64,000 nucleotides of DNA. Origin: Halobacteriovoraceae bacterium. Its GTDB lineage: Bacteria > Bdellovibrionota > Bacteriovoracia > Bacteriovoracales > Bacteriovoracaceae. The translations under genes and the position numbers were made by a program. Shown here in pieces: positions 10,381-62,634 of the stretch. The stretch spans positions 32,001 through 96,000 of the forward strand of contig CAVRCF010000004.1 in assembly GCA_963719505.1 (NCBI GenBank). Direction: 5' to 3'. Below the pieces are notes generated by a model, which made no database searches, had not been told where the DNA came from, and worked only from the letters and a program-made list of their open reading frames with translations. Numbering within the stretch: position 1 is the stretch's first letter; every line of letters starts with the position of its first letter.

Positions 10381-11406
10381 ATGGAGAATAATATGAAACA
10401 AGAAATATTTGATTTTAATATTGAAGACTACGAAGTTGGCAGACAGTATCAGGAGTTTGTTACTTTTCCCACTTTTTTTGGCGTGAGTCGGCAAGAGGTT
10501 CCATTCTATGTACATAGGGCGACAGAAGAGATTTCACCCTGCCTGGTAGTCACAGCATGTATTCATGGTGATGAAATAAATTCTTTGAGAATTGCTCAAA
10601 AATTAATGCAAAGTAAATTGAAAATTACGAAGGGTACTTTGATCATTATCCCTTTATTAAATATATATGGGTTTTATAACAAGTCGAGATACCTTCCAGA
10701 TAGAAAAGACCTTAATAGGTTTTTCCCAGGAAACCAGAATGGAAGTTTTGGATCAAAATTTGCCGATTTTTGCTTCAAAAATATATCAAGGTACGGCGAT
10801 ATTTATATCGATCTCCATTCCGGGGGAGTCGGAAGATTTAATATTCCTCAGATTAGAATTGATATGAAAGACAAAAGATTGAAAAAGCTTCTTCCCAACC
10901 TTAGTATTCCAGTCGCTGTCAATAGTAATCCCGGTCAGGGATCGCTTAGGGCGGCACTCAAGGCGATTGATAAACCTTGTATTGTTTTTGAAGGCGGCGA
11001 GGGATTGAGACTAAATACATCGATAACAAATTACGGGGTTAATTTAGTCAAGAGTGTCTTAGTCGAATATAAAATGTTGAGACCAAAAAAGAAGTTAAAA
11101 AAAGAAACTCTAAGGCTTATGAAAACGAGTTGGATGAGAACTGAACGCGGTGGACTTATGGTCAATAAGGTCAAGCCTGGTAAGGTTGTTCAAAAAGGTG
11201 AGGTTCTTGGAGAGGTAAGAAGAGTTACAGGTCAGCTTCTTAATAAGATTGTCGCTCCCCAAAATGCCGTTATCATCGGGATTTCTGAGTCGTCATTGCT
11301 CATGACGGGAGATCCCCTTTATCACCTAGGGTACTTTAGAGAAGAAGACTGCGATCAAGAAGATAATTTTCTTGATTTTTACGATATTGACATCGCTGAG
11401 GAATAG
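10381..11406 (+). CDS. Succinylglutamate desuccinylase/aspartoacylase-family (M14-like) protein
   Basis: IHGDEIN, DLNRFFPG, IDLHSG, VFEGG, C-terminal biotinyl-like domain. Confidence 0.9.
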   Translation: MENNMKQEIFDFNIEDYEVGRQYQEFVTFPTFFGVSRQEVPFYVHRATEEISPCLVVTACIHGDEINSLRIAQKLMQSKLKITKGTLIIIPLLNIYGFYNKSRYLPDRKDLNRFFPGNQNGSFGSKFADFCFKNISRYGDIYIDLHSGGVGRFNIPQIRIDMKDKRLKKLLPNLSIPVAVNSNPGQGSLRAALKAIDKPCIVFEGGEGLRLNTSITNYGVNLVKSVLVEYKMLRPKKKLKKETLRLMKTSWMRTERGGLMVNKVKPGKVVQKGEVLGEVRRVTGQLLNKIVAPQNAVIIGISESSLLMTGDPLYHLGYFREEDCDQEDNFLDFYDIDIAEE

Positions 11407-11408
11407 AG

Positions 11409-12251
11409 ATGGTTTTAGAATCCTGGCTTTCGCAGGGCTATAATTTAAGGCAAGTAGTACTAACACTTCTTTTGATAGTAGCAGTTGTAGTTTTTAAGTT
11501 TATCTTTAATTTTCGAGTGAGAAAAAGTAAGAAGATTACTTCTGTCGAAAAAATTAGAAAAATTAAATCTACCTCAAATTATTTAACTTTTTTCACTTTT
11601 ATACTTCTTTTCGTTCTTTGGTTCTCCCACCTTCAAACTGTCATGATCTCTTTGGTTGCTGTTGCAGCAGCTATCGTAGTAGCCACAAAAGAAGTTATCA
11701 TGACGTTCATGGGTGGTGTCTTAATAAAAATCAATAATCACTATGATGTTGGAGACAGAATAGAAGTCGATGGCATAAGAGGATTTGTAGTCGAGAGAAA
11801 TTTGACGACAACGAAGGTTCTAGAGATTGGTCCAGAGAAACATTCTCAGCAGACAACCGGTGATATTATTACAATACCGAATTCATTGGTTCTAACAAAA
11901 GCTGTTGTCAACGAGTCTTACTTTAAAAACTATTCAATTAAGTCGTTTGCATTCTCAATGCCCACGGGTGTAACTTTTGAAGAATTTGAAATTGAATTGT
12001 TGCAGTGGTCTCAAGAGATCTGTAAAGATTATTTAAAAGAAGCAAAGAAAATTATAGAAAAATTTTGTCACAAAGAAGGCCTTTTAATTCCCAATGTTGA
12101 GCCAAGGGTGAGGCTTGTGATGACAGACAAGAAAGAGCTGGAAGTCCTTCTTAAATTGCCTGCAAAAAATGAGTATATTGGAGATGTCGAGCAGAGTCTC
12201 TTTAGAAAATATGCCCATTATCTTATGACTTTAGAGAAGGCTAAAAGTTAA
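11409..12251 (+). CDS. MscS-family mechanosensitive channel
   Basis: Three TM helices, VATKE, VGDRIEVDGIRG, TIPNS. Confidence 0.85.
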   Translation: MVLESWLSQGYNLRQVVLTLLLIVAVVVFKFIFNFRVRKSKKITSVEKIRKIKSTSNYLTFFTFILLFVLWFSHLQTVMISLVAVAAAIVVATKEVIMTFMGGVLIKINNHYDVGDRIEVDGIRGFVVERNLTTTKVLEIGPEKHSQQTTGDIITIPNSLVLTKAVVNESYFKNYSIKSFAFSMPTGVTFEEFEIELLQWSQEICKDYLKEAKKIIEKFCHKEGLLIPNVEPRVRLVMTDKKELEVLLKLPAKNEYIGDVEQSLFRKYAHYLMTLEKAKS

Positions 12252-14403
12252 TCTCTTTCTGTAGCATAAGATTTTTGGATTTCTCTTCATCGTTTGGATT
12301 ATAGCTTGTTTCAATGGCCCAAGTTTCAGATAATTGTTTTCTCAAAGTTAGCGCACTAACAGTTTCCCAGTTTGTACCTATTTTAAAAGATGTATTTCCA
12401 GGTAAGCTAATGCTTGCTGTGTAAGACTTAGAACTTGGGTCATAGGCGACATACTCTATGGGAGTCGATGCAAAAGCCCAGATACTAAAAAGGCCTAATG
12501 CCCTGTCTGCTATAGCAGCTTCAGTGCCTCCGACACTTTGTCTTTGAGAGCCTGATATTGCATTTGCTTTTCTTTTAAAGATGAGTAAAGAAAGTATGTC
12601 CTCACGAGGAAGAGTAGGGTAGCTAGACAATATTAATTTTGGTTTTTCAAGTGTCCCTATTATTTTTAGATTGATCTTATAACCTGATGTGAAATAGCTG
12701 GAATTGATATTTATTTCTGTCTTTTCATTTTTCTTATTTTCTACAACAAACGAGTTTAAAAAAAGCTCTCGTTTAAGATAGGAGATTGTTACTTTCTTTG
12801 ACCCTTGAACCTTTACTGTTGTAAATTCGTTGTTAACTTGAGCGTTTAGTCCAAATGCCAAATAAGGTTTCAAAAGATAGTAGTAGATTCTTATAGACTG
12901 ACTTGATGTTGTGGTAACGCTAATATCATAGATCAGCGGGGTCTCTTTGCTTTTGGTATTAGGTCTCTGTATTTTTTTTTGTACTCTACTACTTCCAGAC
13001 AAATTTGGAATTCCACCTATAGGGTCTATTTTAGGGACGTTTACAACCACTTCATCAAGACTAAGGTTTCCTTTTAGGATTGGTTTAAGCTTATTTCGAG
13101 CTTGGAAATTCCCTTCAAAGTTTAGTTTTATGGCATTTTTCTTTTTGTCACTCAGGTCTATCTGAGCAACCAATGGAATATTATATCCATTTTTATTTAG
13201 GTCAAGCATCTTTTCTGACTTGAGATGAACTTTCCCTTCCATGGTATTGAAAGGCGCAAAAATGGCAAAGGAGGTCTCTTCTAATCTCTTTACTAATTTT
13301 TGGAACTTTTGAAAACGCAGATCCCACCTAAACTCATTGATGTTAGGGTTTAGAGAGCCTTCTACAATATCGACGGAGGCCTTTGCTTTAAAGTCGAGTT
13401 CAAAAAGCTCTTTTTGTTCACCAAAAGATTTGACACTCATCTTTATGGCCTGATCAGTCTTTTTGAAATCTATTGTATTTTTAAGATAAGAATCAACTTT
13501 CAAAGAAATTAACTTCTCGTTTGAAACAACAAGCATGATATCGGGACAAATGAAGTTGTGCTGGGGTGACTCTGTAACCTCAAAATGACAAGAGTCTAGC
13601 TTCACAACTGCTTGGGGAAGCTTTATAGCTGTTTTTTGTACTTGTAAATTAAAGTTCTCTTGAAAAGAAAGCTTTATTGTTGAGTCAATTTCGAAGTCAT
13701 CCAATGTAACTTTTGGATTTAGAGTTAATAATATATTTTCTTTAAGATGAAGGGTTATTTTACTGTTAACTTTAAAATCATCCTTTTTAACCTTTAGCAT
13801 CCCCGAGAAGGATTTATCTGATTTTTGGTCTAAATCTAATTCAACGGAAAGTATAGGGGAATTCATCCTTAAAAAAATCACATCTTTGTTGGCCAGAAAT
13901 TCTACATCAGTACCCTCGTCTATAGTGAAATTTTTTATCTTTACATTAACTTCTTGGGGGAGTCTCTTATTGATTTTGCTATAGAGGGCATAGACTTGCT
14001 GGTATAAGCTGTAAATATTGACCTGTGGAAGTTCTTCAGATTTTTTTTCAGTCTTGCCAAGCTCTCCTTTACTAATATTAATGTTCATTTTCTTGATTTC
14101 AATTTCTAGCGGTGAGAGTATGTTTATATTGAAATCTAAATCTAGGTTCTCCAGACATACTTTTGTTCTAGAGTATTCGATACATTGAGCTTTCGAAGTG
14201 AAAGTAATCTCTCTTTTGAACAATGAGCTATCTTCTATAGAGAGATCAATCTTGCTATAGTCTATGGCCAATTCTTTAACGTATTTATTAGTGATGTACT
14301 CGCTTACTTTTTTTATTGAATCGCCGCTAGTTGAAATAAAGTAGAGACCAATTGTGATGGAGACAATAATAATAGCGAATAAAAGGAGAAATATTTTTTT
14401 CAA
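12241..14403 (-). CDS. tamB: Translocation and assembly module TamB-like protein
   Basis: N-terminal anchor, beta-rich body, GTLEKPKLILSSYPTLPREDILSLLIF (DUF490-like); follows an Omp85 gene. Confidence 0.8.
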   Translation of the reverse strand: MKKIFLLLFAIIIVSITIGLYFISTSGDSIKKVSEYITNKYVKELAIDYSKIDLSIEDSSLFKREITFTSKAQCIEYSRTKVCLENLDLDFNINILSPLEIEIKKMNINISKGELGKTEKKSEELPQVNIYSLYQQVYALYSKINKRLPQEVNVKIKNFTIDEGTDVEFLANKDVIFLRMNSPILSVELDLDQKSDKSFSGMLKVKKDDFKVNSKITLHLKENILLTLNPKVTLDDFEIDSTIKLSFQENFNLQVQKTAIKLPQAVVKLDSCHFEVTESPQHNFICPDIMLVVSNEKLISLKVDSYLKNTIDFKKTDQAIKMSVKSFGEQKELFELDFKAKASVDIVEGSLNPNINEFRWDLRFQKFQKLVKRLEETSFAIFAPFNTMEGKVHLKSEKMLDLNKNGYNIPLVAQIDLSDKKKNAIKLNFEGNFQARNKLKPILKGNLSLDEVVVNVPKIDPIGGIPNLSGSSRVQKKIQRPNTKSKETPLIYDISVTTTSSQSIRIYYYLLKPYLAFGLNAQVNNEFTTVKVQGSKKVTISYLKRELFLNSFVVENKKNEKTEININSSYFTSGYKINLKIIGTLEKPKLILSSYPTLPREDILSLLIFKRKANAISGSQRQSVGGTEAAIADRALGLFSIWAFASTPIEYVAYDPSSKSYTASISLPGNTSFKIGTNWETVSALTLRKQLSETWAIETSYNPNDEEKSKNLMLQKEINF

Positions 14404-50130: not shown

Positions 50131-50565
50131 TTAGCGGCATTTAAAGATGATCATTTTATCTCCACCAAATTGAGAGAAGTTTGAGAGATATTTTCCCTCT
50201 CCCCCGGAGCTATTTTCGAATCTTCCAAAGAAAAAATCATCTTGATCTAACTCAAGGTATTTATCATAAAGGAAGATCTCTTTTATTCTGTAAGGGGTAT
50301 CCTTGATATTTGCTAAAACTGTTGAGCTTGTAAACTCCACAACATGTCTTTCACTATCAAATGTTTTTACATCCAATATCTGTTCTTGAGAAGATGTTTT
50401 GACAACGATAGAAGAGTTGATCAAGAATGGATTTTGTCTGAAGTCCTCTGTGTCATGGATAATATCAAGGACAACCTCAGTCTGGTTTAAAAGGGCTACA
50501 CACTCTAGATTTTTGATCTCCGAGTGTGCAGTAAATGATAAAAAGATGAGAGCTAAAAATTTCAT
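50131..50565 (-). CDS. Exported hypothetical protein
   Basis: Signal peptide; start overlaps the glucoamylase stop codon by 1 nt. Confidence 0.7.
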   Translation of the reverse strand: MKFLALIFLSFTAHSEIKNLECVALLNQTEVVLDIIHDTEDFRQNPFLINSSIVVKTSSQEQILDVKTFDSERHVVEFTSSTVLANIKDTPYRIKEIFLYDKYLELDQDDFFFGRFENSSGGEGKYLSNFSQFGGDKMIIFKCR

Positions 50566-51914
50566 TATTTCTTCATCTTTAGGACTTTAGAACGAGCGTT
50601 AACCGCTGTAATAAAAGCTCCATAACTCCAAGTTAAATGTGGGGCACCAGTCATATAACCAGAGTATCTTCCAAATTGTTCGTCAAGTTGGAGAGTCGAT
50701 CCAGAGTGGATTTTGATTCTTTCTAAGTTTTCATCTCCAAGTTCAGTAAGGGTGTCGACCAGTCTTTTTATAACTCCAGAATGAGAGATCGTTGCAGGGG
50801 CTAGGTTCATCTTTAAAATATTATTAAAGAATCCCATATTGTCAGATGTTATATTTACCTTACCGTTTTCTTTAATCATTAAAGCGAGTTCATAATAGTA
50901 CTCACTCAAAGCCGCTGTTAAAAGGAACCATGGCTGTCCACCAAAGTATGTATCTTCAGCATATCTTCCAATTCCTACTCCAACGAAAGTGTTGTTGATT
51001 GGATAGATTTCTTTAAATTTCAAAACGAGTTTTTCAACTGTTCTTAAAATTCTATTATCGAGGTGGTTGTAACTAAATTGTCTTACACCACTGTGAAGAA
51101 CGGCTAAGATTGTCGAAGCATCTAACCTTGAAGGCTTAACAAGTCCACCAGTTCTATCTATTGTAGAGAGAATATAGTTTCTGTCTTTAGACCAAAATGT
51201 TCTAAGTTTTGCATTGAGATCTTGGGCCTTGGCAAAATACCAAGTTGCAGCTGCCTCATCTCCCATGAGTTTTGCAACTTTACTTCCCATAAGAAGAGCT
51301 TTTCTTTGTGCCATTTTTGTATAAAAATGTGTCCCTTTAATTTCTTCCCAAAGGTCGAAATCATCCTCTTGAAAATGATGAGACGTATATTCAAGATCAA
51401 CCTTTAAGACTGTTCTTGCTGGAAGGCTAGGGTTGTATAAGTGCTTTTTAACAAATTCTATCTCGCCTTGGTCAATAAGTTTCAAAGCGTATTGAGCAAG
51501 TGTGATAACTCTCAAAGCCGGACCATCGTTTTGAGGTCTACCCCAAGGTCCTGTAAAACTTGTTCCGTCTGGATTAAATTTTGGCTCACCTTGATTGGTT
51601 AACTTGGAAACATTTTGATGATGAGAGACAAGATTAATATAGTCCTCCACCATTGGCTTAAACTTCTCAGCGCTCAGGGTCTCTTGAAGAGAACTCATCA
51701 CTAGTGCAGCGTCTCTTACCCAGTGGAAATAATAATTAGGGTATGACTTAGAAGGAGCAGCTATGATAAAGCCAGGTCGTGTATCGGGTCTACTGGTGTG
51801 GTCTAAAATACGTTTAAGACTATAGTCGTATTGATCTTTAACCCATTTTTCAGAAACGGTCTGTGCGAATGAATGAGCTGATAAAAGTAAAGAAAGCATT
51901 ACAATAAATTTCAT
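50565..51914 (-). CDS. Secreted GH15 glucoamylase (fungal/Legionella GamA type)
   Basis: Signal peptide; NYYFHWVRDAAL, GEPKFNPDG..FTGPWGRPQNDGPALR, FDLWEE, LDEQF, LTWSY. Confidence 0.93.
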   Translation of the reverse strand: MKFIVMLSLLLSAHSFAQTVSEKWVKDQYDYSLKRILDHTSRPDTRPGFIIAAPSKSYPNYYFHWVRDAALVMSSLQETLSAEKFKPMVEDYINLVSHHQNVSKLTNQGEPKFNPDGTSFTGPWGRPQNDGPALRVITLAQYALKLIDQGEIEFVKKHLYNPSLPARTVLKVDLEYTSHHFQEDDFDLWEEIKGTHFYTKMAQRKALLMGSKVAKLMGDEAAATWYFAKAQDLNAKLRTFWSKDRNYILSTIDRTGGLVKPSRLDASTILAVLHSGVRQFSYNHLDNRILRTVEKLVLKFKEIYPINNTFVGVGIGRYAEDTYFGGQPWFLLTAALSEYYYELALMIKENGKVNITSDNMGFFNNILKMNLAPATISHSGVIKRLVDTLTELGDENLERIKIHSGSTLQLDEQFGRYSGYMTGAPHLTWSYGAFITAVNARSKVLKMKK

Positions 51915-52047
51915 TTATTTCTCCCCAATAATGTGTGCAATGCAATTTGTTAGCAATTATGGGTTGAGCTGACAAGGGTAACTTGTTAATTGACACTTAA
52001 TATTCACAGCGATAAAAGCAAGTTACATAAATTTCAATAGGATACAA

Positions 52048-53640
52048 ATGATTACACTCTCTTCACTCGATTACGGGCTAATAGGCCTCTACTTCCTTGT
52101 TGTTTTTGGCCTGGCTTACATGGTTACAGGAAAAAAATCCTCTCAAGATTCTGAGGAATACTTTTTGGCCGGCAGAAACCTCGGTTGGTTTGTCGTTGGA
52201 GCGTCTATTTTTGCCTCAAATATCGGTTCCGAACATCTCATAGGTCTTGCGGGCTCAGGAGCTACAACGGGCGTGATTGTGGCCCAATTTGAACTGATTG
52301 CTTGCTTTGTGCTTCTTCTTTTAGGATGGGTTTTTGCTCCCTTTTATATCAAGTCGGGTGTTGTAACGATGCCTGAGTTTCTTGAAAAGCGTTACTCTAA
52401 AGCCGCAAGAGATTACCTTACATATGTCTCTATTATTGCCTACGTGCTCACAAAAATTTCAGTAACAATCTATGCGGGTAGTGTTTTATTTGAAAGTATA
52501 GGTGTGTCTTTTTGGGATGGGGCTTTAATTGTCGTTATCGCCACTGGTATCTATACTATTTTTGGCGGACTTAAAGCCGTCATCTACACCGATATGATTC
52601 AAATGATCGTAATGCTAGTTGGTTCAACTTTGATCGTCTATTTTGGATTGGATGAGCTCGGTGGTTTGGGTGAATTAAAAACGACTCTTAGTCCTAGCTT
52701 CTTTTCCATGTGGCGAACAATGGATGATCCCAGTTTTCCTTGGACAGGTATTTTATTTGGAGCTCCCATTTTAGGGGTTTGGTATTGGTGTACCGACCAG
52801 TTTGTTGTTCAAAGAGTCCTGTCTGCTAAAAATATTAAAGAAGCACGTAAAGGAACAATTTTCGCTGGATTCCTAAAGGTACTTCCACTCTATCTTTTTG
52901 TCCTCCCAGGGATGATTTGTTTTGCCCTGTCTCAAAAAGGTCTTTTAACCCTAGAGCGAAGTGATCAAGCCCTTCCTGTATTGGCCTCGTTCGTCCTTCC
53001 AAACGGAGTAAGGGGATTTTTTGTTGCCGGTTTACTCGCAGCTCTTATGAGTTCATTGTCTTCAGTTTTTAATTCGTGTTCAACCCTTGTGACCTATGAA
53101 ATATTTAAGAGAAAAAACCCTAGTCTTTCAGAGAAAAAGTTAGTTCAGATTGGGAGAATTTCAACTGTCGTCTTGGTCGTTTTAGGTATCGCTTGGATTC
53201 CAATGATGAAACATATCTCAGGAGAGCTTTTTACTTACATCCAAAGCGTTCAGGCCTATATCTCGCCTCCTATAGCCGCAGTCTTTTTTCTCGGGCTCTT
53301 TATAAAGAGAATTAATGCAAAGGCTGCTATCACCGCTTTATATGCTGGGCTGTTCGTGGGACTTTTTAGGCTCATCTTAGAAATTCAAAAAGCAAATATA
53401 GATGGAATCTTATTAGAATTTGCCACGATGAATTTCTTGCATTTTGCAGCCTTCTTATTTGTGTTTGTCTCAGTTTTAATGATTGTTGTGAGTCTTCTTA
53501 CAGCTAAGGATGATAAAGATCTCTCTAGCGTTACTTACAATGGAGATATGTTAAAACTTATGAAGGGTACGAAGACTGAGTATGTTCTTTCTGCCCTTCT
53601 TGTTTTTACAGTTCTCTTTATTTGGTGGTTCTACCGATGA
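52048..53640 (+). CDS. Sodium:solute symporter, SGLT/sugar type
   Basis: YFLAGRNL, ASNIGSEHLIGLAG, TMPEFL, GGLKAVIYTD, WYWCTDQFVVQR. Confidence 0.93.
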   Translation: MITLSSLDYGLIGLYFLVVFGLAYMVTGKKSSQDSEEYFLAGRNLGWFVVGASIFASNIGSEHLIGLAGSGATTGVIVAQFELIACFVLLLLGWVFAPFYIKSGVVTMPEFLEKRYSKAARDYLTYVSIIAYVLTKISVTIYAGSVLFESIGVSFWDGALIVVIATGIYTIFGGLKAVIYTDMIQMIVMLVGSTLIVYFGLDELGGLGELKTTLSPSFFSMWRTMDDPSFPWTGILFGAPILGVWYWCTDQFVVQRVLSAKNIKEARKGTIFAGFLKVLPLYLFVLPGMICFALSQKGLLTLERSDQALPVLASFVLPNGVRGFFVAGLLAALMSSLSSVFNSCSTLVTYEIFKRKNPSLSEKKLVQIGRISTVVLVVLGIAWIPMMKHISGELFTYIQSVQAYISPPIAAVFFLGLFIKRINAKAAITALYAGLFVGLFRLILEIQKANIDGILLEFATMNFLHFAAFLFVFVSVLMIVVSLLTAKDDKDLSSVTYNGDMLKLMKGTKTEYVLSALLVFTVLFIWWFYR

Positions 53641-54524
53641 TCTTAGGTATTGATATTGGTGGAACAAATACAAAGCTTGGTGTCGTTGATGATAAGGGGC
53701 GCGTTTTAACAAAAACTGTTTTTCCAACCATGGCGGACCAAGATATCTCCATGTTTCTCGACAATTTAAAACGAGAAGTCGATAAGATTTCTAAGCAGTA
53801 TCCTTTTACTAAAATAGGCGTGGGGTCTCCAAACTATTCTTCGAAGACTGGATTTCTCGCTTCACCCCCGAACCTTTCATGGGGAAGTGTAAATTTAAAA
53901 AAATTAATCAACGAAGCGTTGCCATCATTTGAAATCAATATTGAAAATGATGCGAACATAGCCGCTGTGGGCGAGAAGATTTACGGAGAGGCACAGTCTC
54001 TTAGTGACTTTATTGTGATCACAGTGGGGACTGGTATTGGTTCTGGAATTTTTATTGAAAACAAACTTTTCACTGGATTATCGGGACTAGCTGCCGAGGC
54101 AGGGCATATTCAAATTGCAAGTGAAAATAGAGCTTGTGGTTGTGGTGGCAGAGATCACTTTGAAAGCTATTGTTCAGTTAGTGGCATTAAGCAGACCTAC
54201 AAAGAGGTGACCGGTAAGGATGAAGTTAGCTATAGAGGACTTGTTGGTGAGTTTAATGATGGTGATCCTATTGCGCTAGAGGTTTTTACTAAAACGGCTA
54301 TTCACTTCGCTAATGGCTTAAGCTCCATTGCCGCTTTATTTTCTCCTGAGAGATTCATACTCACTGGTGGTGGGATGACCAATGGTGAGAAATTTTTAAA
54401 TCTTATTCAAAAAGAGTTTTCGGCCAGGGCCTATAGCTTACAAAAACATATACCTATCGAGATTTCCTCGATTGCAAAAGAGGATGGTGCGATTTTAGGC
54501 GCAGCAGCTTCTGCTTCTCTTTAG
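53637..54524 (+). CDS. ROK-family sugar kinase (glucokinase-like)
   Basis: GIDIGGT, ENDAN, GTGIGSG, EAGH, CGCG...E.YCS; no HTH; ATGA overlap with the symporter. Confidence 0.9.
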   Translation: MILGIDIGGTNTKLGVVDDKGRVLTKTVFPTMADQDISMFLDNLKREVDKISKQYPFTKIGVGSPNYSSKTGFLASPPNLSWGSVNLKKLINEALPSFEINIENDANIAAVGEKIYGEAQSLSDFIVITVGTGIGSGIFIENKLFTGLSGLAAEAGHIQIASENRACGCGGRDHFESYCSVSGIKQTYKEVTGKDEVSYRGLVGEFNDGDPIALEVFTKTAIHFANGLSSIAALFSPERFILTGGGMTNGEKFLNLIQKEFSARAYSLQKHIPIEISSIAKEDGAILGAAASASL

Positions 54525-54535
54525 CTTTTAAACTT

Positions 54536-56017
54536 TTAAAGTAAAAATTTGAGCAGCCAAGATGGGAGTGAAAGGAGTCTCATTTGCGTTAACCCACCCG
54601 GGTGATGACCGAAGCGATTAACTTCTTCTTTTGTTCTATTATCTCTCGCCTTTCTTTTTGCTAATATTTCCAAGCCATGGGAAATTCTAAGTTTAACATT
54701 ATCTGCGACTTCATCATAAAGTTTTTTACTTCCTTTGCAAAAGAGACCAAGCTCTGAATTGTAATGGTTGGATCTATTGTCTACATTATAGGTACTAACC
54801 ATAAATTCTAAGGTGTCATGACTTTCAAAAAGGTAAGTTTTTGAATGCGTACCCCACCGAGCATCTTTAATAGCGGGACTTATAACTTCTGTTTCAGGGA
54901 TAAATGAACCTTGATGGAGATTCGTTTTAATACCTTTTTTTCTCCACCTATAAACATCTTTGTAGAGGTTTGCTGCTACATATACGGCGTCTGTAGAAGA
55001 CAGTGAATTAGTATAAGTTTCAATTTCGACACCTTTTTCAAGCATCTTGTCCATTAATCTTCGCGAGTATTTATTGTTCAAAAGATAGGGAGATGAAATC
55101 GTCACTTTTTTATCTGTGGAACTCATTTTGTCGTAAAGTGTTTTTCTTAAATATCTATAGTCGTCTGAGTATGAGTCAACAAGTCTTCTCCAAAAAGTTG
55201 CCCCCGGTCTATCTGTAGACCAAGTGACTTCGGGGCAGAGACTAGAAGTGGCTTTGCTTAAAATGTTTTTTCCTAGGTTTCTTATTTTTGATAGTTTATT
55301 TTCATCTTGTTCAGATCTTACTAGGGTTTGCTGTGCTTTTTTCAAAAGAAGATCATAGTCTTTAGGTTTTTTGTCTTCGAGAATTGGAAAATTCACTCTT
55401 TGTGAAATTCTATGATCAAAATATTCATCAAAACTGGCTGCGATCGTTTTGACTAAAGGTCCTTCGACAACAACATCTCTATCTATAAAATTATATGTCT
55501 CTGATAGGTCAAAATAATCGTCTCCTATATTTCGTCCACCAATAATTGCGATTTCATCGTCGGCGATAAGAATCTTTCTATGGTTTCTAAACTGAATTGT
55601 TGAGACTCTGTAAAGGGGAGCTGAATTGTAGAATCTTAACTCCACACCATTTTGAGAGAGAACTTGGGAGTCGTATTTATCTAAGCTTACGATGGGCATT
55701 GATTTGTCTACCAATAGTCTGACTGAAACTCCTCTTTTTGCTGCTGCGACAAGTTCCTGGAGAATGATTCTTCCTGATAGATCCTTTTCAAAAATAAAAT
55801 ACTCTACCTCAATCGAGGTTTTAGCGTTTTGGATGAGTTGAATTCGTTTTTCAAGTGATCCTATCCCAGAGTTTAGAATAGTTAGGTAGTTGTTTTGATT
55901 ATTTTGCGCCGATTGAACTTCATAGTAAGGATATGGAATCCCTTGAGACAGTAAGGCCTCTTGTGCGATGGCACCAAGGGAGAGAACGAGCAAAAATGCT
56001 AAAATAAATTTCTTCAT
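54536..56017 (-). CDS. Exported phospholipase D-family protein (ClsC/YmdC-like)
   Basis: Signal peptide; HRKILIAD...GGRNIGDDYF and HSKTYLFE...NVDNRS. Confidence 0.88.
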   Translation of the reverse strand: MKKFILAFLLVLSLGAIAQEALLSQGIPYPYYEVQSAQNNQNNYLTILNSGIGSLEKRIQLIQNAKTSIEVEYFIFEKDLSGRIILQELVAAAKRGVSVRLLVDKSMPIVSLDKYDSQVLSQNGVELRFYNSAPLYRVSTIQFRNHRKILIADDEIAIIGGRNIGDDYFDLSETYNFIDRDVVVEGPLVKTIAASFDEYFDHRISQRVNFPILEDKKPKDYDLLLKKAQQTLVRSEQDENKLSKIRNLGKNILSKATSSLCPEVTWSTDRPGATFWRRLVDSYSDDYRYLRKTLYDKMSSTDKKVTISSPYLLNNKYSRRLMDKMLEKGVEIETYTNSLSSTDAVYVAANLYKDVYRWRKKGIKTNLHQGSFIPETEVISPAIKDARWGTHSKTYLFESHDTLEFMVSTYNVDNRSNHYNSELGLFCKGSKKLYDEVADNVKLRISHGLEILAKRKARDNRTKEEVNRFGHHPGGLTQMRLLSLPSWLLKFLL

Positions 56018-56091: not shown

Positions 56092-57416
56092 TATAGAAAC
56101 TAGACGATTATGTCCTATCCTTATTTCTCAGCGATTATGTCCTATTCAATAATATTTATGTACCCTGATTCCAATCAGTTATTAGGGGAATTGAATGGGA
56201 AAAGTCACTATGTCACAAAAAGAATTGAAGCAGTATCGCCTGGCCATGGATGTTATTGAAGGTAAGTTAACTATAATTTCCTTCTCTGAACAGATTGGAA
56301 AATCGTATCGACAATCTCAGAGAATTATCAATAAAGTTAAGGCCAAGGGTTCGATTGGTGTCTTACATGGAAACATTAATCGAACTCCTCACAATAAAAC
56401 TCCATTCGAAGTTGAAGAAAAAATAGTCTCTCTTCTAAAAAATCAATATCGAAACTTTAATCTAACTCATTTTCGAGAAAAGATAGAAGAGTATGAGGAA
56501 ATTAAAATCAAAAAAGATGCACTTCACTCAATTGCTAGGAAACATTGCCTTGTAAAACATCCTAAACGAAGAGGAAGACGGTGCCATAAACCAAGAGCAA
56601 GACTTCCAAAAGAAGGGATGATGATTCAGTTTGATGGAAGTGATCATACTTGGTTCGGTGATGAAAGAACTGATTTGATTGGAGGAATTGATGATGCTAC
56701 CGGGATTGTTGTTGGTGCTGAATTTTTCTATGGAGAGACGTCAAATAACTCTCTGAAGGTGATTAGGGAGATCGTTGATAACTATGGATTGCCAGAAAGT
56801 TTCTATATGGACCAAGCAGGTATTTATGGTAAGAAAGAGCGCGAGTGGGAATCACAAATTTCGAGAGCATTTGATCAAACAGGAATTCAATTAATCTTAG
56901 CAGGTTCTTCTCAAGCAAAGGGAAGAATAGAGAGACTCTGGAGAACATTCCAAGACAGACTGGTAGCGGAGTTAGAATTTAATCACATAACAAATATTGA
57001 AGAAGCCAATTATTACTTAAAAGAGATTTTTATTCCTGCATACAATTTTCAATTCTCAGTCAAAGCCGAAGAAGAAGAAGAAAAAGCCTGGAGAAAAAAT
57101 GTTTTTGGAGACCTAGATATTATATTTTGTAAAAAGATTAGGCGAAAAATTATGGTTGGAAATGTATTTAGTTGGGAGAATGTGACTTGGGTGTTGGATG
57201 AAAAAAGGTGTTTCTATGGACGAGAAATCAATATAAATATTCACCTTGATGGAAGCTACAGCTTCGATGTGATGGGCAGAAAAGTTCAATGTAAAGTTAG
57301 TAATAGGAAAAGATTAAGTGACTATGGTGATAAGTCGAAACACAGAAAAAGCGCTTAAAGTCTGATAGGACATAATCGCTCAGAAATTAACCGGACATAA
57401 TTGCCCAGAAACAACA
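56092..57416 (+). mobile_element. IS1202-family (ISNCY) insertion sequence, 1325 bp
   Basis: TAT...ACA ends, imperfect IRs with repeated ATTATGTCC units, single DDE transposase, 16-bp flanking direct repeat. Confidence 0.9.
56195..57358 (+). CDS. ISNCY/IS1202-family DDE transposase
   Basis: N-terminal HTH, QFDGSDH, IDDATG, MDQAG, SSQAKGRIERLWRTFQDRL. Confidence 0.95.
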   Translation: MGKVTMSQKELKQYRLAMDVIEGKLTIISFSEQIGKSYRQSQRIINKVKAKGSIGVLHGNINRTPHNKTPFEVEEKIVSLLKNQYRNFNLTHFREKIEEYEEIKIKKDALHSIARKHCLVKHPKRRGRRCHKPRARLPKEGMMIQFDGSDHTWFGDERTDLIGGIDDATGIVVGAEFFYGETSNNSLKVIREIVDNYGLPESFYMDQAGIYGKKEREWESQISRAFDQTGIQLILAGSSQAKGRIERLWRTFQDRLVAELEFNHITNIEEANYYLKEIFIPAYNFQFSVKAEEEEEKAWRKNVFGDLDIIFCKKIRRKIMVGNVFSWENVTWVLDEKRCFYGREININIHLDGSYSFDVMGRKVQCKVSNRKRLSDYGDKSKHRKSA

Positions 57417-57432
57417 GGTTTACATAGGGGTG
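57417..57432 (+). repeat. Target-site duplication, right copy
   Basis: GGTTTACATAGGGGTG. Confidence 0.9.
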
Positions 57433-57433
57433 T

Positions 57434-58444
57434 TTAAATTTTAGACAGCTTTGCGATACCCTCTAAGTCTTTGTATTGTTTTGATGTTTTAAAAAATCTT
57501 AGTGAATGATTATAAATCTCTTCCTCTGAAAAATTTAGTATTTTTCGGTAAGAATACTCTTTTCTTAAAAGCTTAATAAACTCGAAAGATACTTTTGGTA
57601 TGATTGTGCAGTCAAAGTTTTTGACATTATGACGAGCGTGAAAGTCTCTTTCACATGCGTAATTAGTCATTGCCGGTAGATCAAAGACTTGAATATTAAA
57701 AGTTTCTAACTCTTCTTTCATTTTTTCATGAATTTTAATTATCGCCGGGTTTTGATTGTAGAGAGTTTTCTTGTTTACAAGCTTTGCGATATTGAATTCT
57801 CCAAGGCCTGAAATTAAAAGAAGTCTCGAAAAACTAATCTTTCCTTCAATACTTTCCACGGTAATATTGGGGTTTGATAGATAGTCAAAATGAGTAAATT
57901 TATGAATGAGAATGTTTTGCATCTGTTCAGGGGCCAGGGTGATAGTGTCGCTATTGATAAGCATAAGGTTTTTAGCTTTTCCTTGTGAATCAGATGTGAG
58001 CATTGAGCCACTTGAACGTCTCGGACCTAAGGGCATGACATAAATTGAGCCATAAATGATTGAATCAGGATATTCTCTAATATATCTTTCTCTTGCTTTA
58101 TCAACTTCGCTCTCTATAAGGCTTGAGTTCTGAATGATCCTTTGACCGTGGATTTCGTAGAGCTCAAAGGCTGCCCAGAGATCTATTTTTTTACTAAGGG
58201 CGCCAGCTGGGTCAGTCCAAATCAACTTTGAATAAAGCGGCGCAAATTTCCCTTCCACGATTTCGTCCCAAAGTTCTAGTCTCTGGTAAAGGGGCTTTGA
58301 CTTAGCTTTATTCCAAAAAGCCTCAAAGCGAGCGGAGATATCAACGTAGTCAATATTATTTGTTTGAGTTACTTTGACCGGTGTGGAGCTACAGCCCCAG
58401 ACGGATATTCCTATAAAAAGAAATAGAATGAATGTGTTTGACAT
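57434..58444 (-). CDS. Lipoprotein resembling a DUF2268-like zinc peptidase with degenerate motif
   Basis: Lipobox VWGC; ILIHKFTH in place of HExxH; start revised. Confidence 0.55.
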   Translation of the reverse strand: MSNTFILFLFIGISVWGCSSTPVKVTQTNNIDYVDISARFEAFWNKAKSKPLYQRLELWDEIVEGKFAPLYSKLIWTDPAGALSKKIDLWAAFELYEIHGQRIIQNSSLIESEVDKARERYIREYPDSIIYGSIYVMPLGPRRSSGSMLTSDSQGKAKNLMLINSDTITLAPEQMQNILIHKFTHFDYLSNPNITVESIEGKISFSRLLLISGLGEFNIAKLVNKKTLYNQNPAIIKIHEKMKEELETFNIQVFDLPAMTNYACERDFHARHNVKNFDCTIIPKVSFEFIKLLRKEYSYRKILNFSEEEIYNHSLRFFKTSKQYKDLEGIAKLSKI

Positions 58445-61239: not shown

Positions 61240-62634
61240 TTACTTTAATTTCTCGTAGGCAGGCTGGATCTTTTCAAAATCAAAGCTCCAATTTGTAGTG
61301 GACTCAATTTCATTTTTAAATTGTCTCTTAGAGTGACCTAAAATAATAGCATCATAAAGAAAAGAAGCCTCTCTAATCATTTTCATTCTTAAACTTAAGA
61401 TGGGACTTCTAATTTTAAAATTTGGATAAAGAAGATTACCATCTCCGTTTCCTCCAAAGTTATAGGTATCTAGCAGAGGATTAACACCAAACCTGGAAAG
61501 TTTCCACTGCTCAATTGAGTTATAATAGAGCAGTCCAGTGATGGGGTACCGAAGAGATAAAAGATAAAACATGTAGATGTCCTGTGCGTCTGCTTCGATG
61601 GAGAGATCAGGAGTTCCTGTCTTGTCGTGAATCAGTCCTGGATTTGGATACTGCGGACTTGAAGTATACTCTCTCGATGGGCCACAGCCATGACTCATGC
61701 AACTGATGTACATCCACAACTCAGAACCCGCATCAATTATTTCCTTAGAACTTTGTTCATCTATATGTTCAGCGACGGGACAATAGATATCAATTTCAAG
61801 ATCAGAATTATAACTAGTCGTGACCATTGTAGATACACTGGGATGTCTTTTTTTAAGATCAGTGAGACTCTTTTTGAGGGCGACAAATTCATCACCAAAA
61901 GGCTCATCCCATACATAAAACCAAGGGTTTTTGAGAATGTTTTTACTTAGCAGCTTATCTATTTCGCCGTTGATTGGGATATTGGTTTGGGTTATTCCAT
62001 TTTTTGACACATATGTTTCAAATCGATCATGCCTTTTTTCATTATAGGGTTCAAGCCATGACTTAATAGGGCGAACTCTATGTTTAAGCGCTTCCCTATG
62101 GGCCTGTAAGGCAAGACTTTCGTCTTCTTTTTTATAAGTTCCACGGTTGAGACCGAGTGAATAGGCATAGGGCTCAATTGGAATAAACAGGTTGAGCTTT
62201 GGTTTAAGAGAGGACTTTTTTAGTTTATCAATGGAGATTTCAATATTTTCAAGTTTAAAGGACTCACTGGTTTCAAAAAAAGCGTAGTCAGTTCGTCCAC
62301 AGTTTTCTGCAGTCAGAGGCTTAAGGGCATCGTAGTAAATACCCGTAGCATAATCCCTTGCAGAGGGATGATCGATTTGAATTGGGAGTATGGCAAAGGC
62401 CAGTCCTTGGAGCTTACAAATTTCACCTGTAAAAATAAAGCCTGTCGTTTGATTTTTAAAAATAGTTCTTTTTAAAGTATCGACCCAATCATCTTTTTTT
62501 ATTTCGTGAGGCTTTTGAAGATAACGTGCAACTTTTAAAGGACCTCTTTTTATGAATGACTTTTTACTCGTTTGTTCTTTAGGGTTTTGGCAGGAAATGA
62601 AAATAAAAAGAAGGGCGAGGATTAGCTTTATCAT
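61240..62634 (-). CDS. Lipoprotein with DUF4091/GH123-like C-terminus
   Basis: Lipobox FISC; YVWDEP, LWMYISC, GLLYY, NGDGNLLYP, SLRMKMIRE. Confidence 0.7.
   Translation of the reverse strand: MIKLILALLFIFISCQNPKEQTSKKSFIKRGPLKVARYLQKPHEIKKDDWVDTLKRTIFKNQTTGFIFTGEICKLQGLAFAILPIQIDHPSARDYATGIYYDALKPLTAENCGRTDYAFFETSESFKLENIEISIDKLKKSSLKPKLNLFIPIEPYAYSLGLNRGTYKKEDESLALQAHREALKHRVRPIKSWLEPYNEKRHDRFETYVSKNGITQTNIPINGEIDKLLSKNILKNPWFYVWDEPFGDEFVALKKSLTDLKKRHPSVSTMVTTSYNSDLEIDIYCPVAEHIDEQSSKEIIDAGSELWMYISCMSHGCGPSREYTSSPQYPNPGLIHDKTGTPDLSIEADAQDIYMFYLLSLRYPITGLLYYNSIEQWKLSRFGVNPLLDTYNFGGNGDGNLLYPNFKIRSPILSLRMKMIREASFLYDAIILGHSKRQFKNEIESTTNWSFDFEKIQPAYEKLK

Follow-up and report, generated by a model that had tools for sequence, protein, structure and literature searches.

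A stretch of 64,000 nucleotides from a Halobacteriovoraceae bacterium (called the window below, a name that always refers to the whole stretch that was analysed) holds between positions 50,131 and 54,524 four genes in two divergent pairs, which we read as a candidate island for the scavenging of sugar. One pair encodes a putative secreted glucoamylase of glycoside hydrolase family GH15 and a small orphan protein (small144), the other a putative symporter of the SSS family that resembles the sodium/glucose cotransporter SGLT, and a putative sugar kinase of the ROK family (Table 1). The genome to which the window belongs (G000; the window is C4:32001-96000) comprises 3.69 Mb in five contigs and is 83.5% complete, so that 'not found' in G000 does not equal absence. 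In the labels used below, G stands for genomes of the phylum or family and L for loci (contigs or stretches) that were compared; the contig of G004 is L033 and that of G114 is L028, while L110 is the L028 record and L117 the L032 record.

Table 1. Features of the candidate island, in positions of the window (aa, amino acids; ORF, open reading frame; HTH, helix-turn-helix domain).
Feature	Position	Strand	Description
small144, putative exported orphan protein	50131-50565	-	144 aa ORF, without Pfam or NCBIfam family
GH15 glucoamylase, putatively secreted, catalytic domain only, fungal/GamA-like type	50565-51914	-	449 aa, PF00723
Putative divergent promoter region, 133 bp	51915-52047	.	8-nt inverted repeat and conserved block with TTGACA at about 51992
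SGLT-like SSS symporter, putative Na+/glucose importer	52048-53640	+	530 aa, PF00474
ROK-family sugar kinase without HTH, putative glucokinase	53622-54524	+	300 aa ORF, PF00480

An ORF map of positions 50131-54524 agrees with the original prediction, which was made from the letters of the window and a list of its ORFs, in the coordinates of all four genes and in the divergence of GH15 from SSS and ROK across the spacer. The stop codon TAA of GH15 and the ATG of small144 share one A (TAATG), and the stop codon TGA of SSS (53638-53640) is overlapped by an ATG at 53637 (ATGA). Because of these two junctions both gene pairs appear to be translationally coupled, as had been proposed for each of them. 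For ROK, the ATG at 53637 is a likelier start than the TTG at 53622. No regulator gene was found in the island by family scans and by reading of the neighbourhood, and the locus does not present itself as an operon with an operator and its regulator. Horizontal transfer was considered on the basis of composition and rejected, the G+C content of the island (0.37-0.40, versus about 0.36 nearby) being unremarkable.

The GH15 protein matches PF00723 at 5.2e-79, with residues 40-438 aligned to profile positions 16-426 of 427. This is its sole domain, and the Pfam scan returned neither Glucodextran_N nor CBM20. The best solved match in the PDB is 27xj_A (2e-68), a chain of 438 amino acids named 'glucan 1,4-alpha-glucosidase', after which come glucoamylases of fungi, among them Aspergillus, Trichoderma and Saccharomycopsis (1e-50 to 1e-58). 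Among the 11 PDB matches listed, the strong ones are fungal chains and 27xj only, the single enzyme that is not a glucoamylase is a dextran dextrinase (7e-6), and no bacterial N-domain glucoamylase, glucodextranase or trehalase chain occurs. The NCBIfam model TIGR01577 scores 67 bits, versus a cut-off of 820. In an alignment with Aspergillus glucoamylase 3eqa, the DLWEE stretch falls on DLWEE (WEE, E179/E180 by chain index) and LDEQF on MSEQY (SEQ); we take the Glu in WEE to be the general acid and the Glu in (S/D)EQ to be the general base. All of the aligned relatives (14 of 14) agree at E190, E191, E412 and Q413 and in the Trp, Arg and Asp columns of the substrate site. The alignment with 3eqa and this invariance bear out the fungal signature blocks and both catalytic Glu contexts that had been recognized in the translation. 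As judged by sequence, the enzyme belongs to the fungal/GamA type rather than to the bacterial N-domain type, and its predicted activity is the release of glucose from alpha-1,4/1,6-glucan (glycogen, starch, maltodextrin). The N-terminus (MKFIVMLSLLLSAHSFA/QT) resembles a Sec signal peptide by eye.

The SSS protein matches PF00474 (SSF) at 2.8e-86 and scores 372 bits with TIGR00813, above the cut-off of 184. Human SGLT1 is its best PDB match (7e-108), and vSGLT of Vibrio matches at 9e-72. Aligned to the solved chain 7sl8, all 7 residues that coordinate glucose in SGLT1 (N78, H83, E102, Y290, W291, K321, Q457), as given in the accessible part of PMC6133168, are identical in the SSS protein. The same holds for residues A76, I79, S392 and S393 of the Na2 site, and at position 389 the SSS protein has Ala, as does 7sl8.

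Residues 8-296 of the 300 in the ROK protein match PF00480 (2.7e-57), and no N-terminal HTH is found. Its best PDB match is a glucokinase of Streptomyces (3vgk, 3e-39). The sequence contains DIGGTN, ENDAN and GTGIG, which we take to be motifs of ROK kinases, and by eye a zinc motif CGCGGRDH, in which His presumably takes the place that the third Cys has in many ROK kinases. G000 gives no other match to ROK or Glk: a Glk-type glucokinase was not found in that genome, the matches to PF02685 being the ROK gene itself. At family level the assignments of GH15, SSS and ROK made earlier thus hold by their Pfam and PDB matches.

The small144 protein begins with a stretch (MKFLALIFLSFTAHS/E) that resembles a signal peptide by eye. 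The putative signal peptides of GH15 (51864-51914) and small144 (50523-50565) look similar, both with MKF at the start, a hydrophobic run and AHS. Two Cys residues, C22 and C143, are conserved. An AlphaFold2 model of moderate confidence is all-beta with about 9 strands (predicted local distance difference test 68.6, predicted template modelling score 0.64). A Foldseek search of the PDB returned no match at E<=0.001, and the best VIA-align result (Z 6.2, to small 8-stranded barrels such as fHbp, NHBA, PliC and others) lies below the noise level of 7-8. In the ESM Atlas the best score was 0.86, to unnamed clusters, and no longer or fused forms of the protein were found. With neither fold nor family searches giving a match above noise, the idea of a detached starch-binding module or of another known fold was rejected. 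A complex prediction of small144 with GH15 (score 0.00, mark 0.32) speaks neither for nor against binding. A profile search of 1.84 billion representatives yielded a family of 4 proteins, another search yielded 3, and among 237 genomes of the taxonomic family the protein occurs in G000 and G002 only.

For the spacer, the original prediction had drawn attention to an inverted repeat. The repeat exists, with exact arms of 8 nt (GTAACTTG at 51978-51985 and CAAGTTAC at 52019-52026), but it does not exceed chance and is not conserved. A perfect 8-nt inverted repeat with a gap of 3-60 nt arises in 672 of 5000 mononucleotide shuffles of the spacer and in 841 of 5000 first-order Markov resamples, and the right arm reads CAGGCTTT in L025, the closest relative. 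Because 13-17% of shuffles or resamples hold such a repeat and the arm is changed in L025, it carries no weight, and its role as an operator was rejected. Nearly identical in L025 is a block of 36 nt, CTGACAAGrGTAAsTTGTTAATTGACACTTAATATT, which includes TTGACA. The spacer of G004 does not align with that of the window. A scan for consensus promoters lists nothing inside the spacer, the nearest site (51878-51905, +) lying within the coding sequence of GH15, and the 15 promoter and terminator sites that were found are no excess over shuffles (11.1 +/- 3.1).

Comparison with relatives indicates that the four genes travel together. A close relative, represented by two metagenome contigs (L025 and L026), has the same four genes at the same place, at identities of 89% (GH15), 91% (SSS), 81% (ROK) and 67% (small144), and its flanks are syntenic with those of the window from OmpA to a cytochrome-c peroxidase (CCP). 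In the congener G002 the order reads OmpA, lipo246, a fatty-acid hydroxylase (FAhyd), EEP and a lysine-rich protein of 104 amino acids (lys104), then, after about 170 bp, PLD, CCP, h348 and MFS. As lys104 and PLD are no more than about 170 bp apart there, what G002 lacks is exactly small144, GH15, SSS and ROK; between these two flanking genes the four form a single block that is either present or absent. The orthologues of ROK and of the SGLT-like symporter were found in G000 and G004, both of which hold the module, and not in G001 and G002 (87% and 90% complete), while G003 has an SSS fragment at a contig end. Proportions of nonsynonymous and synonymous differences (pN/pS) from L025 are 0.08/0.74 for GH15, 0.06/0.76 for SSS, 0.14/0.72 for ROK and 0.20/0.90 for small144. 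As pN is low (0.06-0.20) where synonymous sites are saturated (pS 0.72-0.90), all four genes are under purifying selection and maintained as coding genes, and the same comparison marks the orphan small144 as a real coding gene. A search for sequencing runs that contain the 4.4-kb stretch listed none.

The surroundings of the block hold some further features. Convergent with ROK is the gene of the PLD-superfamily protein (54536-56017, -), which carries a signal peptide and two stretches of PLDc_2; L025 has two paralogues of it (72% and 47% identical), compared with one in the window. An element similar to an insertion sequence (56100-57450; ORF 56195-57358, +) lies between PLD and h348. It encodes 387 amino acids with a weak integrase-core match (PF24764, 0.0034) and is present in G000 in 8 copies of 99-100% identity. 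At this place L025 has the second PLD paralogue and no insertion sequence. About 7 kb from the island, an ORF of 464 amino acids (61240-62634, -) with a weak match to the GH123 catalytic domain (1.8e-06, 28 bits) may encode a further glycosidase.

Beyond these close relatives, linkage of a glucoamylase to glucose uptake recurs in Bdellovibrionota. Relatives of GH15 were found in 386 stretches of GTDB species genomes, and contexts were read for the best 80 of the 386. In these 80 loci SSS is adjacent to GH15 in 5 and SSS together with ROK in 3; in L032 the three genes are co-directional instead of divergent. Among 12 GH15 loci from 11 relatives the trio GH15-SSS-ROK occurs in 1 (G004). A search with the symporter (E<=1e-90) covered 401 genomes of the phylum, of which 24 hold a match, and 22 of the other 23 were inspected (G361 was left out). 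GH15 is adjacent to SSS in 8 of the 22, namely 4 times in the fungal type (L110, L117, L123, L124) and 4 times in the bacterial type with Glucodextran_N (L107, L112, L113, L115; best NCBIfam model glucan 1,4-alpha-glucosidase), and ROK is adjacent in 11. Where SSS is at least 57% identical (10 loci), ROK adjoins it in 9 and GH15 in 6; L108, one of the four without GH15, ends inside the SSS gene, so that the upstream side is out of view. L111 shows the same neighbourhood (MocA oxidoreductase, GS-III) and no GH15.

In L107 (G033) a protein of 705 amino acids with Glucodextran_N (PF09137) and GH15 (10661-12778) occupies the divergent position beside the orthologous SSS-ROK pair. Its N-terminus, the only one of the bacterial type that was read, is signal-peptide-like by eye. 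By domain content, the glucoamylase is displaced by a non-orthologous GH15 beside SSS-ROK in L107, L112, L113 and L115. A third kind of alpha-glucan enzyme, a GH13 (PF00128, 429 bits), stands directly upstream of a 37%-identical SGLT-like SSS in L128 (5565-7220, G211).

Another route of uptake appears next to GH15 in other lineages. In 7 of the 80 loci and in 2 of the relatives' 12 loci GH15 adjoins genes for EIICB(A) and EI of a phosphotransferase system (PTS), among them a metagenome-assembled genome (MAG) of Halobacteriovorax marinus (L062). Of five EIICB proteins scanned, 2 pass the PtsG equivalog cut-offs of NCBIfam and 3 have a glucose-specific best model below cut-off. Loci with a PTS beside fungal-type GH15 are L062 (1929-5811), L067 (6930-11291), L054, L087, L090, L095, L031, L014 and L022; L067 encodes an EIIA-HPr-EI fusion, and a PGI-like gene lies nearby in L067 and L072. 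In a tree of 82 bacterial GH15 sequences (midpoint-rooted, quick mode), 3 changes are required for the SSS-linked rows and 3 for the PTS-linked rows, with at least 2 in each case forced by well-supported branches. Taken together, the comparative data support a functional link between the genes of the island, as far as adjacency and orthology can indicate one.

The best 80 GH15 relatives belong mostly to Bdellovibrionota, with Coxiellaceae and a clade of Pseudoalteromonas and Vibrio nested among them. Because of this nesting, transfer of GH15 between gammaproteobacteria and Bdellovibrionota is suggested, in a tree that is midpoint-rooted. The gammaproteobacterial clade (14 loci among L061-L088 and L100, from Pseudoalteromonas, Vibrio and Catenovulum) has a conserved neighbourhood of its own, with a ferritin-like protein, a GMC oxidoreductase, a thiamine pyrophosphate enzyme and two unknowns. 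The GH15 of L096, from a contig that bears the label 'candidate division WWE3', branches as near sister to that of L052 ('Deltaproteobacteria'; branch lengths 0.17-0.19), which may reflect an error of binning or labelling.

With respect to host metabolism, searches for phosphofructokinase (PFK) and pyruvate kinase (PK) were positive in 4 of 4 genomes, and glucose-6-phosphate isomerase (PGI) was found in G000, which answers positively the check for downstream glycolysis genes that had been suggested. A search for GH13 was negative in 4 of 4 genomes (13 of 14 controls positive), as was one for glycogen phosphorylase (12 of 14 controls positive). Neither GT5 glycogen synthase nor PTS EIIC was found in G000. 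Self-made glycogen is not apparent as a substrate, as far as the searches see. Within the same reach, the island would be the only entry point for free glucose, because no PTS EIIC and no Glk-type glucokinase were found.

Based on this dataset, we consider it probable that the four genes form an accessory island for sugar scavenging by release, import and phosphorylation, with glycogen of prey as the likeliest substrate. GH15 would leave the cytoplasm by its Sec signal peptide and, as an exo-acting enzyme, free glucose from the non-reducing ends of exogenous alpha-glucan. The SGLT-like symporter may take up this glucose together with Na+, and the ROK kinase would convert it to glucose-6-phosphate, which may enter glycolysis by way of PGI, PFK and PK. 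The two transcription units, which diverge from one region of 133 bp and are gained or lost together, may also be regulated together, and small144 would be co-transcribed with GH15 as a member of the island. Prey-cell glycogen is favoured as substrate because no machinery for own glycogen was found and the family is one of obligate predators; free environmental glucan would be the alternative. The gain and loss as a block, the recurrence of GH15-SSS-ROK, the replacement by a non-orthologous GH15, the pairs of GH15 and PTS and the presence of glycolysis genes all agree with the route of release, import and phosphorylation that the original prediction had put forward. Synteny across Bdellovibrionota, which had been named as a check, was compared with the same outcome: the linkage recurs, the block is an insertion or deletion with respect to G002, and L025 and L026 carry the same block.

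Several observations weigh against this reading. Of the best 80 GH15 loci, 68 have neither SSS nor PTS adjacent (within 6 kb). SSS loci without ROK or GH15 nearby comprise 5 of one genus (50-52% identity) and 4 others (37-40%). Of the GH15-positive relatives 9 of 11 carry ROK or PTS EIIC, versus 27 of 49 GH15-negative ones, where kin are not independent; as this is a weak enrichment only, co-occurrence at the genome level was set aside as a test. The nearest NCBIfam equivalog of the SSS protein (NF007790) gives 318 bits, below its cut-off of 401, and the best model of the ROK protein (TIGR00744, 'ROK family glucokinase') gives 161.4 bits, below 260.35. Since both miss these cut-offs, the sugar specificity is read from conserved residues and context. 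With regard to the glucokinase called by the original prediction, membership in the ROK family stands (PF00480; best model and best structure are both glucokinases) and the cut-off of TIGR00744 is not reached. For this reason the protein is filed as a sugar kinase and is named glucokinase by best match and context only. The homologue of small144 in G002 (37% identical) has dnaE, udk and DTW genes as neighbours and stands apart from any GH15. Hence, small144 belongs to the island in this lineage, but an association with GH15 is not general for its family. The host, finally, is presumably a predator, as its taxonomic position among same-family records of Halobacteriovoraceae/Bacteriovoracaceae suggests.

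In the first of three other explanations, the genes and the chemistry are unchanged and the substrate is environmental: algal starch, glycogen or maltodextrin, dissolved or particulate, would be taken up outside of prey and independently of prey digestion, to the benefit of cells that live freely, are in the attack phase or are facultative predators. No feature of the sequence connects the island with predation. The island is patchy even within the genus, with GH15 in 0 of 3 congeners, and the 14 of the best 80 GH15 loci that belong to free-living marine Pseudoalteromonas, Vibrio and Catenovulum are nested among Bdellovibrionota. However, all named same-family records are MAGs of Halobacteriovoraceae/Bacteriovoracaceae, whose cultured members are obligate predators; the enzyme has PF00723 only and no starch-binding module for raw starch; and Coxiellaceae and Legionella, other holders of this type of GH15, likewise live inside other cells. 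We therefore regard use of environmental glucan as unlikely, though it is the strongest competitor of the use of prey glycogen.

A second explanation concerns the place of action. GH15 might reside in the periplasm and trim maltooligosaccharides that diffuse through the outer membrane, rather than attack polymeric glycogen outside, and a periplasmic amylase indeed acts in the use of maltodextrin by enteric bacteria. A signal peptide alone takes GH15 no further than the periplasm, and only a signal peptide of Sec type (by eye) and no recognizable export tag is seen in the enzyme, which is also devoid of a carbohydrate-binding module. A match to GspL (PF05134) of the system for type II secretion (T2SS), the only T2SS family searched, was not found in G000, and one in G004 lies below the cut-off. 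Both the reach of the signal peptide and the GspL result count against the preferred reading as well, in which export beyond the periplasm is a supposition. On the other hand, the search covered this one family in a genome that is 83.5% complete, the island holds no maltoporin or maltodextrin genes, and a characterized relative, GamA of Legionella pneumophila, leaves the cell through type II secretion and breaks down glycogen and starch, according to the accessible part of PMC6617341. A purely periplasmic role hence appears improbable. The third explanation, that SSS and ROK handle galactose, mannose, an amino sugar or inositol and adjoin GH15 by accident, can draw on the NCBIfam cut-offs missed by both, on ROK matches over cut-off in 34 of 61 genomes of the phylum irrespective of GH15, on the several solutes carried by SGLT-family members and on SSS relatives that stand alone, but is very improbable given the complete set of conserved SGLT1 glucose ligands, an adjacency to GH15 that survives both rearrangement and non-orthologous replacement, a PtsG-class PTS at the same place in other lineages, and the gain or loss of the four genes as one block.

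Regarding novelty, SGLT-type symporters and ROK glucokinases are textbook knowledge, and the nutrition of Bdellovibrio-like predators is held to consist of amino acids, nucleotides and lipids from their prey. No report that ties a glucoamylase or the use of glycogen to such predators was found in the literature covered, subscription papers and supplements lying outside this coverage, and the words glucose, glycoside, glycogen and phosphotransferase do not occur in the accessible part of PMC11656739. Proteins similar to GamA with signal peptides in 'Deltaproteobacteria' are already in print (PMC6617341, accessible part). Hence the enzyme type, SGLT and ROK were known, and the recurring coupling of GH15 to glucose uptake in Bdellovibrionota was not found in print. 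This coupling stands against a statement in the accessible part of PMC11271337, by which B. bacteriovorus, having no PTS, is unlikely to use carbohydrates.

The island suggests that polymers of sugar serve as food for some of these predators, in a group to which the use of sugars is not usually ascribed. In a wider sense, several Bdellovibrio-like lineages might independently have wired a secreted glucoamylase to glucose import and phosphorylation, with prey glycogen a real source of carbon and energy for part of the phylum and, in the lineage of the window, small144 a new accessory factor of the enzyme; this proposal is tentative and, as a whole, rather doubtful. If true, it would involve two unrelated GH15 architectures, combined with either SGLT and ROK or a PtsG-type PTS, and it would contradict the view, for which B. 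bacteriovorus HD100 is the source, that carbohydrates are not used by these predators. Occurring repeatedly beside glucose import and phosphorylation, GH15 offers a concrete and testable route to prey glycogen for some predators, and its contexts widen the picture of the 'eukaryote-like' GamA type.

Among known systems, GamA (lpg0422) of Legionella pneumophila resembles the GH15 of the window as a catalytic-domain-only protein of about 440 amino acids that has a signal peptide (a putative one in the window) and whose host obtains its food within another cell; this comparison is by description only. GamA is described as a 'eukaryotic-like' glucoamylase secreted by T2SS that degrades glycogen and starch (PMC6617341, citing Herrmann 2011; accessible part). 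In the same part of that source gamA mutants grow normally in hosts, so that a nutritional role is unproven even for GamA, and a linked transporter or kinase, as present in the window, is not mentioned for it. The fungal glucoamylases of A. niger/awamori (3eqa/1agm), Trichoderma (2vn4) and Saccharomycopsis (GLU1, 1ayx) can be aligned from residue 47 to 445, at about 1e-57 to 1e-58, and share WxRD, WGRPQxDGPALR, DLWEE, GRYxEDxY, PWFLxT, EQ and LTWSY with the GH15 of the window. The latter differs from them in having neither the C-terminal CBM20 nor the O-glycosylated linker, and its host and putative signal peptide are bacterial. Compared with the bacterial type (Glucodextran_N plus GH15, TIGR01535), the enzyme of the window is without the N-terminal beta-sandwich domain, whereas the bacterial type plays the same role in the cassettes of G033, G262, G323 and G406, divergent from the orthologous SSS-ROK pair. 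The putative substrate of the symporter, which resembles SGLT1/SGLT2 and vSGLT (SSS family, TC 2.A.21.3), is suggested by the glucose ligands and Na2 residues of SGLT1 that it keeps; with 530 amino acids it is devoid of the long C-terminal loop of animal SGLTs. The kinase is of kinase-only length and without HTH, as are the ROK glucokinases GlkA of Streptomyces griseus (3vgk) and GlcK of Bacillus. The arrangement of GH15 with a glucose PTS in other Bdellovibrionota (e.g. L062) would follow the same logic, a secreted GH15 beside a route for glucose import and phosphorylation, with uptake by EIICBA and EI, which are not homologous to SSS and ROK of the window.

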